Source: a phage
Strand: one strand, 5' to 3'
Length of the DNA stretch: 64,000 bases
Sequence record: PZ445446.1
The notes under the pieces are model-generated. The model made no database searches. It was not told the origin of the DNA and worked only from the letters and a program-made list of their open reading frames with translations. Of this stretch, positions 4,614 through 64,000 are shown piece by piece; within the stretch, counting starts at the first letter, position 1; every line of letters begins with the position of its first letter. Both the position numbers and the translations under genes were made by a program.

Positions 4614-5061
4614 TACTGTAAAGGGAGATCTAATCTCCATTTTCAAGAAAGGGTCAGGCCACATGATCCACGGTTGTAACTGCTTTCACACAATGGGTGC
4701 AGGTATAGCGAAAGATATTGCCCGTGAGTTCCCTCAAGCACTGGCAGCCGACAAAGAGACTGCTTATGGTAATCTAGACAAGCTGGGTATGTTTTCTTGT
4801 TGGGAGCATTTTGCCAAGACCAGGGTCGTATATGGAATCAACCTGTATACCCAGTTCTACCCAGGGCCCAATGCTGAATACTTCTCAATCATGAAAGGTT
4901 TTGAGCGAGTCAACGAGGTATTCAAAGGTATGTCATTGCCGTTCTACATTCCTAAAATCGGATGCGGTATTGGAGGTCTAAAGTGGGAACATGTAGAAGA
5001 TGTAATTAATCTTGCAACCACAGATATTGATGTGGTTGTAGTAGAGTACAAAAAGTGTTGA
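4603..5061 (+). CDS. macro-domain-like protein (putative ADP-ribose binding/processing)
   Basis: 152 aa; HGCNC...MGAGIAKDIA and IPKIGCGIGG resemble macro-domain glycine-rich ADP-ribose binding loops. Confidence 0.4.
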   Translation: MIIDTVKGDLISIFKKGSGHMIHGCNCFHTMGAGIAKDIAREFPQALAADKETAYGNLDKLGMFSCWEHFAKTRVVYGINLYTQFYPGPNAEYFSIMKGFERVNEVFKGMSLPFYIPKIGCGIGGLKWEHVEDVINLATTDIDVVVVEYKKC

Positions 5062-5115
5062 CGACCATCTTCTGAGGTGATATAGTTTCCACAACAACTA
5101 AAAGAGGAGAGCACT

Positions 5116-5286
5116 GTGGAGACTAAAATCTTAATTCTTGCTGTGGTAGATACAACCGAAGGAGCTATATTCGAATCTGCAGGAGGGTATTTCTACCTAC
5201 CATACGGAAAAAGAACTTCCGAGCCAAGTAAAGATTCAATCCTCAAAGTGTTCCCGTGTGCTTTCTGGCTGGAGATTTTGGTATAA
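5116..5286 (+). CDS. hypothetical small protein (GTG start)
   Basis: ~56 aa ORF not in track; GTG preceded by aaagaggag SD and TTGACG/TATAGT promoter-like sequence at ~5060-5092. Confidence 0.25.
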   Translation: METKILILAVVDTTEGAIFESAGGYFYLPYGKRTSEPSKDSILKVFPCAFWLEILV

Positions 5287-5312
5287 GATTGCAGATGATT
5301 TGGGAGAGAATT

Positions 5313-5507
5313 ATGAGAAACAAGAAAGAACTTTACTCTGGTGAGTGGATCAACGATCAACAGGTGGGAGAGGTAACCTGCTTCCGATGTTTTACCAGGT
5401 ACAATCTTAAAACTGCACCAAAAAGTGTTCCAAAGACTGATGGTTATTATATAAAAGAACCTCATTGCCCAAAATGTAAATGCCGATTGTACTGGAGCAA
5501 TCTGTAA
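5313..5507 (+). CDS. zinc-ribbon small protein
   Basis: 64 aa from internal ATG with ggagag SD; CFRC...CPKCKC four-cysteine motif. Confidence 0.4.
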   Translation: MRNKKELYSGEWINDQQVGEVTCFRCFTRYNLKTAPKSVPKTDGYYIKEPHCPKCKCRLYWSNL

Positions 5508-5511
5508 GAGG

Positions 5512-5539
5512 TTGACATCTGAAAACTGCAGTGTATAAT
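5512..5539 (+). promoter_or_regulatory. sigma70-like promoter
   Basis: TTGACA, 16 bp spacer, TATAAT upstream of ORF 5571. Confidence 0.5.
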
Positions 5540-5570
5540 ATACGCATAAACTAACAGAGAGCGATGTATT

Positions 5571-5762
5571 ATGGTAATTTTTAACCGGGATGGTATCATA
5601 GTTAGACAGCACCCGTTCCTTGAATACTATCAAATTGAGCAATGGTGCTACGGGGATTGCAGTCACTCCTATGGGCAAAGTTGGGGATACCGTACAGTTT
5701 TTGAATCCACAGACCTTGACAAAGTAAGACAGAAAGTTTTAGAACTTATTAACAACAAGTGA
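5571..5762 (+). CDS. hypothetical small protein
   Basis: 63 aa ORF downstream of consensus promoter. Confidence 0.45.
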   Translation: MVIFNRDGIIVRQHPFLEYYQIEQWCYGDCSHSYGQSWGYRTVFESTDLDKVRQKVLELINNK

Positions 5763-58417: not shown

Positions 58418-58768
58418 ATGAAAGATGGGGATAAGCTGCTATATCTTAAAGTCCCCCTTGAAATACTGTCTATGTCAAAAGTTTTGAATGACACAACTGG
58501 AGAGGTTGTTGTTCTTGACTTGTATGACAAGATCGTATACTGCTACCTGCACAACTGGTATAAGCTTGGAGGAAATTCACGCTTCACACCCAGCACAAGG
58601 AAAATTGCAGCAGATGTTGGGATAAAGAAAACAAAAGCAGCAGCGTGCGTTAAAACTTTAGAGTGTGCAGGGGTGGTTGAAACATCCACACAAGGGAGAG
58701 GTAAAAGATGCACATTTTCCAAAGTTTTGCCACCAGAAGAAGTTATTCGGATGTCAACAACTGGTTAG
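58418..58768 (+). CDS. putative HTH DNA-binding protein
   Basis: 116 aa; HTH-like STRKIAADVGIKKTKAAACVKTLECAGVV; immediately upstream of palindromic iterons. Confidence 0.45.
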   Translation: MKDGDKLLYLKVPLEILSMSKVLNDTTGEVVVLDLYDKIVYCYLHNWYKLGGNSRFTPSTRKIAADVGIKKTKAAACVKTLECAGVVETSTQGRGKRCTFSKVLPPEEVIRMSTTG

Positions 58769-58840
58769 ACCAGTAAAAACTTAAATATCTGTACTATAAG
58801 GATTCGTATGTTTTATGTTCGCCATGGAACGGATACTATT

Positions 58841-58926
58841 AACTGTCCGTGATACGGACACTACTGTCCGTCACGCGGACACATCTGCCCGTAATACGGA
58901 CACTAACTGTCCGTGATACGGACACA
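58841..58926. repeat. four tandem palindromic ~21-bp operator/iteron-like sites
   Basis: aactgtccgtgatacggacac x2 (identical, first and fourth) plus two variants; each unit is an inverted repeat gtccg-N5-cggac; followed by ~120 bp AT-rich DNA. Confidence 0.65.
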
Positions 58927-59045
58927 TAAAGAATATAACTAAAATAACTAAATAATAAAAAATAAAAGATCTAGTACTTATGGTACTAAGTACATATACT
59001 TAACTTATGTAGAATATACTAGATCCTAAGTACCATGTTTTAAAT

Positions 59046-59330
59046 TTATTACTTACTATGGGCAGTGTCGGCCCTTCATTGGCACTCGCCTACGAGGGGC
59101 GAGATGCCGGGCCTCCTTGGTGGACACAATAACAGAAGTGCATACATGCAGGTCTGTTAACATGTGTGGGAGCGAAGCGATAGCGCAGGCCAAAGGCCGA
59201 GCACTGATGTGGACCACCGACGAAAGCTTGCCAGCGCCGTAAGGAGTCGGTTGAGAGTCTCCCGCGCGAGCTTGGATGAAGTTTATGTGTGGAAACTGAC
59301 AAGAAGGTCCCTAAATCGCTCCACAGCCAT
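59046..59330. other. GC-rich structured non-coding segment (candidate ncRNA or long structured leader)
   Basis: ~285 bp with local hairpins (e.g. ctcgcc-tacgagg-ggcgag), no credible ORF on either strand; the minus-strand 70 aa ORF looks like non-coding translation. Confidence 0.3.
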
Positions 59331-60282: not shown

Positions 60283-60525
60283 ATGTTTAAGGTTAAGCTC
60301 GTTTTTCGTTCCATGAATGAGGATTATTTAGAAGATGAAGGTGAATTTCGTGCACTGGATGATGCAATAGATTTTGCCAACGACTTAGCTTGTATGAATA
60401 CAGGTTATGGGCTATGTTGTTGGGATGGTGGTGTTCAGATCGGTGATAGCAAGATCTTCTACTTCTACCCTGAGCCTGATAACAAACAAATTAAGTATGT
60501 TTTATTTATTTGTGCTTTACAATGA
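60283..60525 (+). CDS. hypothetical protein
   Basis: 80 aa ORF. Confidence 0.4.
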   Translation: MFKVKLVFRSMNEDYLEDEGEFRALDDAIDFANDLACMNTGYGLCCWDGGVQIGDSKIFYFYPEPDNKQIKYVLFICALQ

Positions 60526-60529
60526 GGTT

Positions 60530-60860
60530 GTTTTCGTGTATCATGATGAATATCCAATTTAAAGATGAATTTGATGGCTTTATCTCTGGATGCTTTGAAA
60601 CAGGGTTCGGAGAAGACTGAGTTCCCCTTAGAGGGCTTGATAGTGCACCACACTTAAAATGGTAGGGGCAGCCAGCACATGACGATGTGACCCCAGCCAA
60701 CCTGTAACAAGGTCGAGCCGAAGCGCGGGTAATAGGCCTCTGGTAACCCACTTGTTGGGTCTTGCTGGCCCAGGACGCTGGACAAGTCGCAGGGAATACC
60801 ACCCTGCGGCGAACTTGACAATCAGTATTTGCTATGATAAAATCCACCTATCACGTGATA
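60530..60860. other. GC-rich structured non-coding segment (candidate ncRNA)
   Basis: ~330 bp lacking plausible ORFs; hairpins such as cgcaggg-aatacca-ccctgcg; overlapping minus-strand ORF has Ser/Pro/Arg-rich composition. Confidence 0.3.
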
Positions 60861-60871
60861 ATGGAGGAAAC

Positions 60872-61210
60872 ATGGCGGATACAACTAAAAAGCGTCGCCG
60901 TAGAGGCAGACCTCTGAAAGAGGAGTCCAACGCCATTCAGCTAGAGAAGAACATCCTTGATATGAAGGAATCTTTTATAGCGATGGTTCCAGAAGCTCAC
61001 AAAGTTTTAAGAGAGCTGATGTTGGACCCGAAAACCAAACAAAATATTCGTCAAAGCATTGCAGAGTATGTTCTTGATAAGGCAGACCGAATGCAGGAAG
61101 AATATGATGAGATGTTTGGTGAAGAGGAAGAGGTGGTAGTGGAAGAGGCTGAAAAACCAGCACCTTTTATGCCATTTACTACAGAAATACAGCCTGTTAG
61201 CAATAGCTAA
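60872..61210 (+). CDS. small basic DNA-binding protein (possible terminase small subunit)
   Basis: Start at ATG 60872 with ggagga SD; N-terminal KKRRRRGRPLKE basic/AT-hook-like segment, acidic C-terminus; function inferred only from position and charge. Confidence 0.35.
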   Translation: MADTTKKRRRRGRPLKEESNAIQLEKNILDMKESFIAMVPEAHKVLRELMLDPKTKQNIRQSIAEYVLDKADRMQEEYDEMFGEEEEVVVEEAEKPAPFMPFTTEIQPVSNS

Positions 61211-61306: not shown

Positions 61307-61381
61307 GCCCTGTTAGCTTAGTGGATAAAGCAGCGGCCTTCTAAGCCGTTGACACTGGTTCGAGTCCAGTACGGGGTGCCA
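61307..61381 (+). tRNA. tRNA-Arg (anticodon UCU)
   Basis: Hand-folded cloverleaf: acceptor gccctgt/acggggt (two G-U), D-arm gctt/aagc, anticodon loop cttctaa, T-loop ttcgagt, encoded CCA. Confidence 0.7.
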
Positions 61382-61385
61382 AATT

Positions 61386-61472
61386 GGGGAGTTATCCCGT
61401 AGAGGTAGCGGTGTAGACTGTAAATCTATTGTCATTGCGACTCGGGTGGTTCGACTCCACCACTCCCCACCA
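61386..61472 (+). tRNA. tRNA-Tyr (anticodon GUA), type II
   Basis: Acceptor ggggagt/actcccc, anticodon loop ctgtaaa, long variable arm, T-arm ggtgg-ttcgact-ccacc, CCA encoded; close to E. coli tRNA-Tyr. Confidence 0.75.
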
Positions 61473-61586
61473 AATTTATATTTTTAGATGCATAAATAAT
61501 ACAGATAATGGCATTGATATTTATCGTCGTTTATACTAGTCACTAACTGCTCGAAAATCAGTGTCATTATCAGTATAATTTATAAA

Positions 61587-61677
61587 GGAGGGTAGGGAGC
61601 AATGGTGCTCAAGCGGTCTTGAAAACCGTCCCGTTGAGGATGACTCGATGATGGTTCGATTCCATTACTCTCCGCCA
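61587..61677 (+). tRNA. tRNA-Ser (anticodon UGA), type II
   Basis: Acceptor ggagggt/actctcc, D-stem gagc/gctc, anticodon stem gcggt/accgt with loop cttgaaa, long variable arm, T-loop ttcgatt, CCA encoded. Confidence 0.7.
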
Positions 61678-61766
61678 CATTGTTGACCTTGTAATTAAGC
61701 GAAAGCCGGAAGCAGAACCGGATTATCAAATGTTACAGTCGTCATCGCCGACTAGCAACATGGTCA

Positions 61767-61863
61767 ACATACTGAGCTAGGTAAGCCCTTTGGCAAGGGC
61801 GAGGATTTTTAATCCTGAAAATAGACGAGGTAGTCGTTGAATACATAGGTGGTTCGATTCCAT
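61767..61863 (+). tRNA. atypical tRNA-like gene (UUU-like anticodon loop, ~30-nt extra region, no encoded CCA)
   Basis: Perfect 7-bp acceptor gctaggt/acctagc, normal D-arm (gccc-tttggcaa-gggc) and T-arm (ggtgg-ttcgatt-ccatc), anticodon-like loop tttttaa; ~30 nt between anticodon and T arms; 3' end is CCT. Confidence 0.4.
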
Positions 61864-61870
61864 CACCTAG

Positions 61871-61946
61871 CACCTTTTTGCTGATGTAGCACAATCGGTA
61901 GTGCAATTGATTTGTAATCAATAGGTTGTAGGTTCAAGTCCTGCCA
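61871..61946 (+). tRNA. tRNA-Thr (anticodon UGU)
   Basis: Acceptor gctgatg/catcagc, D-stem gcac/gtgc, anticodon stem attga/tcaat with loop tttgtaa, T-loop ttcaagt, CCA encoded. Confidence 0.75.
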
Positions 61947-61947
61947 T

Positions 61948-62022
61948 CAGCACCAAGGCCCTGTAGCTGGAAGGTTCAAGCAAGCGACTCATAATCGCCA
62001 GACGGTGGTTCAATTCCACCCA
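61948..62022 (+). tRNA. tRNA-Met (anticodon CAU; initiator/elongator/Ile-lysidine not resolved)
   Basis: Acceptor ggccctg/cagggcc, anticodon loop ctcataa, T-arm ggtgg-ttcaatt-ccacc, CCA encoded. Confidence 0.65.
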
Positions 62023-62033
62023 GGGCCACCAAA

Positions 62034-62110
62034 TAGTAAATACTCCGCGTAGCTCAGCTTGGTAGAGCGCCTGATTTGGGATCAGGAGGTCGAGTGTTCG
62101 AATCACTCCG
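62034..62110 (+). tRNA. tRNA-Pro (anticodon UGG)
   Basis: Acceptor ctccgcg/cgtggag, D-arm gctc-agcttggta-gagc, anticodon stem cctga/tcagg with loop tttggga, T-loop ttcgaat, CCA encoded. Confidence 0.75.
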
Positions 62111-62165
62111 TGGAGACCACTTTCAGTTATACTTTAAACATATATAAACAAAAGGAACCTTTAAA

Positions 62166-63223: not shown

Positions 63224-63648
63224 TGTCTAAGATTTACGGACCGTGTTCTGAAAAGCAGAAGATGATCCTCGAAAACGATGCAGATATTTTGGTAATCGGC
63301 GGTGCCGCAGGGTCTGGCAAGTCGTTCCTCTTGCAATTGATGCCACTTAAAATTATTGATGACCCCCACAGCTCTGTGGTTATGTTCCGAAGAACAACCC
63401 CGCAGTTGGAAGGTGAGGGTGGACTATGGCCTAAAGCGGTAGCTATTTATAGTGATCTGCCTGAAAACATTAAGCCAAAGTTCAGAGAGAAGGATCATAA
63501 GTTCATTTTTCCACGGTTTGATCCGAACACTGGCAAGTGGGATAGAAGCAAAAAGGGAGCTGTTGTAAAATACTGCCACATGGAGTATGTACAAGATAAG
63601 CTTAACCATCAAGGGCTTGAGTACACCATGGTTTGCTTCGATGAGGGT
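63223..63648 (+). CDS. terL: terminase large subunit, exon 1 (ATPase N-terminus, interrupted by intron)
   Basis: Walker A GGAAGSGKS and Walker B-like MVCFDEG; ORF stops after only 142 aa exactly where group I intron elements begin. Confidence 0.6.
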
Positions 63649-64000
63649 TAATTTGTAGCTCTCGTAAAACCTCCCTAATTGCGGGGAAATCTTTACTATT
63701 AATACCACCAACCTGTCATGGTAACATGATAGAGGCTTCGAAGAGAGATCGAAGGTATGGTAACAGTGTGTTAATTTAGATAATCCGCAGCGAAGCATCC
63801 GAGAGGATGAACGTTCAACGACTAGTCGAAAGACGTAGAATCAAGCGATTCGAAACGGGAGGATAAGCGGTTGTTGTCGCTTATAAGATATAGTCTGGTC
63901 TGCATGGAGACATGCAGCTGCCTGAAAATGGCGGGGCAAGACTAGCGACCTTGCCCGAACATAAACGACACAATTCGAATGGGAGCAGATAGACTATCTG
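63649..64000 (+). ncRNA. group I self-splicing intron (5' portion; continues beyond window)
   Basis: Core elements in canonical order: P-like aattgcggggaaa (~63677), Q-like aatccgcagcg (~63782), R-like gttcaacgactag (~63813), S-like aagatatagtc (~63885); exon ends in U; candidate IGS gctctc can pair with exon gagggu. Confidence 0.65.

Follow-up and report, generated by a model that had tools for sequence, protein, structure and literature searches.

What is carried by a GC-rich stretch of phage DNA in which no protein-like gene is apparent? The question is raised by positions 60526-60871 of a 64,000-nucleotide stretch of sequence record PZ445446.1 (hereafter the window), described in the original prediction as a GC-rich, structured segment free of open reading frames (ORFs) upstream of a gene for a basic DNA-binding protein. 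Over the surrounding 2.6 kb, about 117 rV5-like Escherichia phages (genus Vequintavirus) show 95-99.6% identity, and in the GenBank records of annotated relatives positions 60621-60871 are without any feature. The GC content is raised as had been claimed: it is 0.56 over 60600-60799, compared with about 0.36-0.45 on either side. The surrounding features are the following:

58418-58768, plus strand: winged-helix replication-initiator-like gene, followed by direct repeats and an AT-rich stretch
59046-59330, plus strand: GC-rich island 1, followed by three small genes
60516-60544, plus strand: candidate upstream promoter, TTTACA-17-TATCAT, sigma-70-like with 10/12 matches (consensus match only)
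60522-60620, plus strand: small ORF of 32 aa, in ATGA overlap with the previous stop (GenBank inoa_29, bas54_0219), outside the RNA
60621-60814, plus strand: structured non-coding RNA region, about 195 nt, GC about 0.56
60815-60843, plus strand: promoter of the downstream basic-protein gene, TTGACA-17-TAAAAT with TG, sigma-70-like with 11/12 consensus matches; 3' limit of the RNA region
60872-61210, plus strand: basic-protein gene, PHROG 3330, KKRRRRGRP motif
61307-62119, plus strand: seven tRNA genes

The interval first reported extends too far on either side. Some 95 nt at its start belong to the small ORF 60522-60620, which is AT-rich and whose substitutions among relatives are mostly synonymous, and about 55 nt at its end make up the next gene's promoter and leader. 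Because of this ORF on the 5' side and this promoter on the 3' side, the non-coding segment is confined to 60621-60814. The description as GC-rich and without protein-like ORF therefore holds for 60621-60814 and fails for the two ends, a real small gene lying inside the interval. Stops are found in all three plus-strand frames of 60621-60820. On the minus strand, the ORF 60506-60847, which had been set aside as translated non-coding DNA, is open in most Vequintaviruses and only in close relatives. The element measures 192, 197, 199, 200 or 201 nt, and since these differences are not multiples of three the minus-strand frame is broken among relatives; in sequence L173 and in five of the six sister-genus sequences all three minus frames contain stops. 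This ORF is spurious, as had been proposed, and no ORF conserved among relatives crosses the element.

The several strong hairpins reported for the segment fare differently. The minimum free energy of the segment is -86.9 kcal/mol, and the z-scores relative to shuffled sequence are -0.39 (plus strand) and -0.16 (minus strand). Thermodynamic stability is not above chance, so strong hairpins prove nothing by themselves; this part of the claim fails on energy, and structure is backed instead by covariation. The more general proposal of a structured non-coding RNA locus gains comparative support from the structure-conservation check that had been suggested for it, in the form of compensatory changes among the relatives described below.

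A sensitive BLAST search of 60540-60875 against 50,697 phage records matched the Vequintaviruses and, unexpectedly, about 460 T4-like phages, the latter at window positions 60693-60736 with 86-89% identity. A search of 5,426 E. coli genomes found no similar DNA, and the element was accordingly not captured from the host. The family was gathered by pattern scans of IMG/VR and metagenome contigs and is met in six settings: Vequintavirus, where the position of the element is kept in all ~117 genomes; the sister genus of rV5 (L015, L147, L154, L174-L176); T4-like lineages; ~45-kb coliphages, represented in GenBank by phage Ivi; a 360-kb jumbo-phage contig (L179); and assorted metagenomic phages. 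A covariance model of the core (CM R1) finds 98 copies with 28-73 bits in the loci collected. In the window it has a single match, 60693-60741, which scores 53.9 bits and whose sequence belonged to the seed of the model. BLAST started from one divergent member matched only the adjacent tRNA-Ser, and a second divergent query had no match. When 185,579 genomes of bacteria and archaea were scanned with the core pattern, 93 matches came up, all of them chance occurrences in GC-rich coding sequence (KVEPKGG motif) and none in a CCUGU context.

The part common to all these phages is a core of ~48 nt composed of helix P2, the P3 hairpin ACCU-GURNNA-AGGU, a C-N-A linker, hairpin P4 and a GGUAA(W) strand leading back to P2. 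In the window it is laid out as follows:

60693-60741, plus strand: conserved family core, a three-way junction with short flanks (BLAST to ~460 T4-like records, CM R1, covariation)
60696-60737, plus strand: closing helix P2, GCCA 60696-60699 with U-a-GGC 60733-60737, A60734 bulged
60700-60713, plus strand: P3 hairpin ACCU-GUAACA-AGGU, that is ACCUGUAACAAGGU, with invariant stem and a loop that fits GURNNA
60714-60716, plus strand: junction strand J3/4, CGA (family consensus C-N-A)
60717-60726, plus strand: P4 hairpin GCC-GAA-G(C)GC, with variable triloop and one bulged base (covariation)
60727-60732, plus strand: junction strand J4/2, GGGUAA (family consensus GGUAA, nearly invariant)

The window thus has all three traits by which the family is recognized, namely P3, P4 with GGUAA, and P2 with the upstream pairings a-a' and b-b' described below. 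Among 76 distinct sequences the junction-proximal pair of P2 is A-U in 40, U-A in 18, U-G in eight, C-G in seven and G-C in three, and is never unpaired; the middle pair of P4 is C-G in 59, U-A in eight and G-C in two. P4 is also found as GGC...(U)CC in L173, as GUC...GAC in the second copy of L018 and several metagenomic members, as GCG-CAA-CGC in L204 and as GCC-UUUU-GGC in L128. GAGCCNAAGNGCGG had been considered as a conserved loop and was rejected, the variants showing a hairpin. In the core alignment A3, which was fitted to the model, 86.9% of the cells are paired over these 76 sequences, a figure that falls to 27-49% when partners are slid; covariation scores 0.203, compared with 0.071 +/- 0.009 in shuffles, and none of 500 shuffles attains it. 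A MAFFT alignment that was not fitted gives the same picture. Across the core and full alignments the scores lie at 0.16-0.20 against 0.06-0.08 when shuffled, again with 0/500 shuffles reaching them, although covariation counts overstate the independent events because many sequences are closely related. The apparent invariance of the P3 stem, which has a single G-C variant in L018 copy 2, and of GGUAA is due in part to the collecting patterns, most of which required them; both are nevertheless present in every true match of the two scans that did not.

Upstream and downstream of the core, the model of the full RNA adds these elements:

60625-60635, plus strand: hairpin H1, CCC UUAGA GGG, 97.6% paired
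60647-60663, plus strand: hairpin H2, ACCA ... UGGU, 100% paired, invariant
60665-60694, plus strand: helix a-a', GGGG 60665-60668 with CCCC 60691-60694, enclosing strand b and hairpin c (60676-60689)
60671-60675, plus strand: pseudoknot strand b, GCCAG, pairing with b' CUGGU 60740-60744; four of the five pairs change on both sides
60746-60760, plus strand: hairpin He, ACCC ... GGGU, with A-U replaced by U-A in L173
60770-60781, plus strand: hairpin Hf, CCAG GACG CUGG, UCAG/CUGA in L173
60783-60817, plus strand: long 3' hairpin Hg, CAAGU-CGCAGGG ... CCCUGCG-ACUUG, 100% paired, Vequintavirus only and hardly varying

Not all of these are equally telling, H1 being uninformative because it is invariant. 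Helix a-a' lies directly 5' of P2 in every lineage with a different sequence: GGGG/CCCC in the window, elsewhere GGAAC/GUUCC, GGGAA/UUCCC, GGGAG/CUCCC, AAAGG/CCUUU, AAAGA/UCUUU, GAGUG/CACUC, GAAUG/CAUUC or GCGC/GCGC; between the two genera, G-C becomes A-U at two of its pairs. The pseudoknot b-b' is CCAG/CUGG in the window and GUGAGGG/CCCUUAC, UGAGG/CCUCA, AACCG/CGGUU, CACAC/GUGUG, CGGA/UCCG or CGGU/GCCG in other lineages. Over 14 lineages the cognate b-b' duplexes have a mean of -6.9 kcal/mol against -4.2 +/- 0.5 when partners are permuted, and none of 20000 permutations reaches that value. T4 and Bp7 differ by compensatory changes in two helices that lie upstream of the BLAST match. For alignment A2 (14 sequences from two genera), pairing across the eleven helices amounts to 91.5%, compared with 27-44% once partners are slid; both bases change in twelve pairs, and covariation scores 0.156 where shuffles score 0.076. 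L173 by itself contributes compensatory changes to P2, P4, He and Hf. An independent RNAalifold prediction also contains H2, P3, P4, He, Hf and Hg, and offers in the Vequintavirinae an alternative in which the 5' end (GUUCC) pairs with strand a. Compensatory changes support the predicted helices P2, P4 and a-a' as well as the pseudoknot.

Such conservation could in principle belong to the DNA itself, as an origin, a packaging or recombination site or an array of protein-binding sites. An origin-like iteron region does lie 1.8 kb upstream, and the 3' hairpin Hg runs into the -35 box of the downstream promoter. A DNA-level signal is nonetheless very improbable: G-U pairs outnumber A-C pairs 33 to 13 in A2, a G-U wobble being A-C on the other strand, the orientation of the element always agrees with transcription, and a pseudoknot combined with a three-way junction is an architecture of the RNA type. 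On these comparisons the element is very probably a real structured RNA family. They show what appears to be a pseudoknotted three-way-junction RNA of the transcribed strand, under purifying selection for its fold and common to unrelated phages.

The family is absent from Rfam 15, widespread in phages, usually in or beside tRNA clusters, and also present, unannotated, in T4. With 4227 models, at the gathering threshold and at E <= 10, no Rfam match overlaps 60621-60814 on the plus strand, which bears out the earlier remark that the segment resembles neither RNase P RNA nor tmRNA. The sole match at E <= 10 that touches the region is a weak one on the minus strand, traJ_5, with 14.4 bits and E = 9.4 at 60750-60849. 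The T4 copy had no Rfam match, and ten diverse family loci had only tRNAs and one group I intron. Several likenesses were considered and rejected. GAGCCCAAGCGCGGUAAU...GGG superficially resembles the P4-loop region of twister ribozymes. The same positions form a simple covarying hairpin in L173, L018 copy 2, L128 and L132, and the 'AAG' triloop of this segment varies freely across the family (CAA, AGA, CGU, UUUU and others); with a freely varying P4 loop and a covarying stem, the T1 and T2 loop pseudoknots of twister cannot exist, and the Rfam twister models have no match. A likeness of CCUGUAAU to the Alu domain of SRP RNA was dropped, no Rfam SRP model matching, and so was a T-box-like 'specifier' reading of the P3 loop, which has no Rfam T-box match and whose loop triplet varies among close relatives.

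Phage RNAs of other kinds are closer in setting. The GOLLD and ROOL RNAs, which phages and prophages carry, often beside tRNA genes, are likewise structured and of unknown function. They measure roughly 500-800 nt, whereas the core of the new family has 48 nt, and neither the window nor the ten family loci gave an Rfam match to them. The T4 RNAs rnaC and rnaD (species 1 and 2) are also small stable phage RNAs, of ~120-140 nt, co-located and matured with tRNA genes; a dual-omics study of T4 lists RNAC and RNAD as its only small RNAs, and their function is still unknown (PMC9697503). Unlike them, the T4 copy of the new family, at 64.85-64.94 kb on the minus strand, lies ~6 kb from the tRNA cluster, and there is no similarity in sequence or structure. 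In T4 63500-74500 (11 kb) the single match of CM R1 is the vs.8 leader, not rnaC or rnaD. In the literature searched, the core sequence was found in no paper and nothing on the denV/vs.8 spacer, an rV5 non-coding RNA or such a T4 stable RNA element; a catalogue of ~10,000 viral candidate RNAs (PMC10690425) lay outside this comparison.

The most instructive comparison is with HDV-like ribozymes, whose nested double-pseudoknot order P1, P2, P3, P1', P4, P2' corresponds to a, b, c, a', the junction domain and b' in all lineages that have hairpin c. The element could accordingly be read as a new class of catalytic RNA, self-cleaving or otherwise, which would cut polycistronic transcripts (tRNA trailers, mRNAs) and whose junction would be the active site. 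Besides the helix order, phage HDV-like 'theta' ribozymes also adjoin phage tRNA genes (PMC10879173), copies in L211, L179 and L170 begin a few nucleotides from a tRNA 3' end, and junction nucleotides that are unpaired yet nearly invariant are typically seen in cores that catalyse a reaction or bind a ligand. The HDV-like class is however defined by a catalytic C at the first position of J4/2 (PMC10879173), and the family has no counterpart: the linker from the 3' strand of P2 to b' starts with G in T4 or U in L005 and L010, without any conserved C, and the C of the window linker (C60738-U60739) is absent from L173 and other lineages. Helix a, the equivalent of P1, has 4-6 bp rather than ~7, the ~45-kb phage lineage is without a P3-like hairpin, and the most conserved part of the family is the counterpart of the P4 domain that HDV can dispense with. 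No Rfam HDV model matches, nor does any ribozyme model at E <= 10, and host RNases can free the copies in tRNA arrays without self-cleavage. Membership among HDV-like or theta ribozymes was rejected, since the topology fits and the core does not. A catalytic RNA of a class of its own appears rather unlikely, and the fuller version, a new class with HDV-like topology and a three-way-junction core that would process tRNA-operon and early transcripts, T4 included, is unlikely.

In the non-T4-like loci with a tRNA gene, the nearest tRNA is on the strand of the RNA in 37 of 37, at a distance of 45-1183 nt. Several copies lie between two tRNAs or ~50 nt or less from one; in the window one protein gene stands between the RNA and the tRNA cluster. 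What is found downstream varies by lineage: vs.8 in T4-like phages, an AT-hook-like basic protein behind its own promoter in the window, and tRNAs elsewhere. This basic protein (60872-61210, plus strand) carries KKRRRRGRP near its N-terminus, with an AT-hook-like RGRP, has an acidic C-terminal half, and is kept beside the RNA in both genera of Vequintavirinae. No promoter or terminator belonging to the RNA itself was found in the window, where the promoter at 60516-60544 is a possible source of a transcript running through the small ORF into the RNA. In the sister genus, a TTGACA-16-TATACT promoter-like site (11/12 matches) is found directly upstream and a second promoter directly downstream. 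Downstream of the L211 copy a terminator-like hairpin is visible by eye, but the scan did not report it.

In the ~45-kb coliphages the RNA unit is closed by its own stem. These phages (L013 reverse strand ~4900-5700, L010, L145, and L172, which is Ivi) carry a row of different structured units, each closed by GUUGUGRY/RYCACAAC and separated by perfect 11-15-bp hairpins, in which the flanks of adjacent units pair and which resemble sites of RNase III-type processing. None of the remaining units matches an Rfam family, and they are unrelated to the family described here.

Taken together, these settings are compatible with a stable small RNA that would act in trans and bind a partner through its junction, a reading to which, as a whole, we give an even chance. 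The RNA of the window would arise by read-through from upstream promoters and be bounded by the 3' hairpin and the next promoter, while copies in tRNA arrays would be freed by the usual tRNA maturation and by RNase III-type cleavage. The product would accumulate as a discrete stable small RNA and act in trans, the invariant junction serving as a docking surface for a conserved partner. The partner would most plausibly belong to tRNA or translation metabolism, or be a host nuclease that targets the RNA.

Against such a stable trans-acting RNA, the vs.8-leader position in T4-like phages would fit a cis-regulatory role as well. The T4 and Bp7 copies lie in the denV/vs.8 spacer on the strand of the genes, and 42 of 49 copies in T4-like phages end 63-119 nt before the aligned vs.8 start, whatever gene is upstream; the remaining seven are the first of a tandem pair or have an ORF intervening. 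Two further elements, seen in T4-like phages only, lie between the core and the vs.8 start: a hairpin GCCAHGGAAUGGCCC with GGA in the loop (e.g. L003 2560-2580) and a helix URCA/UGYG in which A-C alternates with G-U. The constant spacing, this conserved hairpin and the alternative pairings available to strands a and a' would suit a riboswitch, an attenuator or a translational operator of the downstream gene. A cis-acting regulator is improbable all the same, as the downstream gene differs between lineages, the leader position is constant only within T4-like phages, no vs.8 homologue is found in the window or at the non-T4 loci, and some copies have tRNAs on both sides. A link of the RNA to the Vs.8 protein, an uncharacterized P-loop protein, was likewise rejected, homologues being confined to T4-like loci.

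In the T4 reference (L171, NC_000866 64253-64912) the annotated start of vs.8 lies inside the RNA element (compare L003 2465-2600), and the conserved Vs.8 protein begins ~37 codons after that start, at MRTFLTG. This annotation across the element and the minus frame open in most Vequintaviruses would speak for a protein, whether coded by the minus-strand ORF 60506-60847, by a frameshifted gene or, in T4, by an N-terminal extension of Vs.8. That the element encodes protein is scarcely credible, given the stops in every plus frame of the window, the minus-strand stops in L173 and the sister genus, and the length differences that three does not divide. Between T4-like lineages the hairpin loops also differ in length and the conserved blocks in frame, and Pfam and PHROGs recognize Vs.8 only from MRTFLTG on.

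A patchy distribution across unrelated phages, with cores that are yet 85-90% identical, could also be that of a selfish or hitch-hiking mobile cassette, spread by recombination between co-infecting phages without benefit to the carrier. The element is mosaic: in some Vequintaviruses (L161, L143, L131) a T4-type P4 and junction, GAGCCCAAGYGCGGUAAUGGGU, replaces the version at window positions 60717-60737, which suggests that the core has been exchanged between phage families. In some T4-like phages a second, diverged tandem copy lies between the first copy and vs.8 (L023 9135-9180, L018 5092-5137, L167 477-522). A cassette of this kind seems quite improbable, however, for no endonuclease or transposase is associated with the element and its position is stable in all ~117 Vequintavirus genomes. 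In addition, the structure is kept by compensatory changes in four helices despite differing flanks, which indicates selection on the folded RNA.

With the stable RNA acting in trans retained as the preferred reading, a conserved pseudoknotted RNA has apparently been overlooked in T4, the most studied phage, hidden under the annotated N-terminal extension of vs.8. The family also occurs in rV5-like phages, which are used for biocontrol and therapy. With a 48-nt core and ~100-200 nt in total, it would be a compact and tractable addition to the unexplained tRNA-adjacent phage RNAs rnaC/rnaD, GOLLD and ROOL, and its function is directly testable because T4 and E. coli genetics are in place. The annotation of the T4 vs.8 start and of the hypothetical ORFs laid over non-coding islands in Vequintavirus records can be corrected.

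Other features of the window were noted on the way. The GC-rich island at 59046-59330 (plus strand) had been thought to form a pair with the present segment. This does not stand: neither the family HMM nor the covariance model has a match there, which led us to reject the island as a paralogue of the RNA, and it is confined to Vequintavirus (118 records, 80-100% identity). The island folds better than shuffled sequence (z = -3.6), has diverged enough for a covariation study and adjoins the origin-like iteron and AT-rich region. In the latter, at 58418-59045, a gene for a winged-helix 'replication initiation protein' (PHROG 12838) precedes direct repeats like CTGTCCGTGATACGGACAC (58815-58925) and an AT-rich stretch, an arrangement that looks like a replication origin. 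A group I intron at 63639-63917 (plus strand; Rfam RF00028, 84.3 bits) interrupts a terminase-large-subunit-like ORF that stops at 63651. Finally, a tRNA-like gene at 61776-61874 (plus strand) has an irregular anticodon loop, given as 'atcc' by ARAGORN, and is labelled tRNA-Lys or tRNA-OTHER in GenBank.
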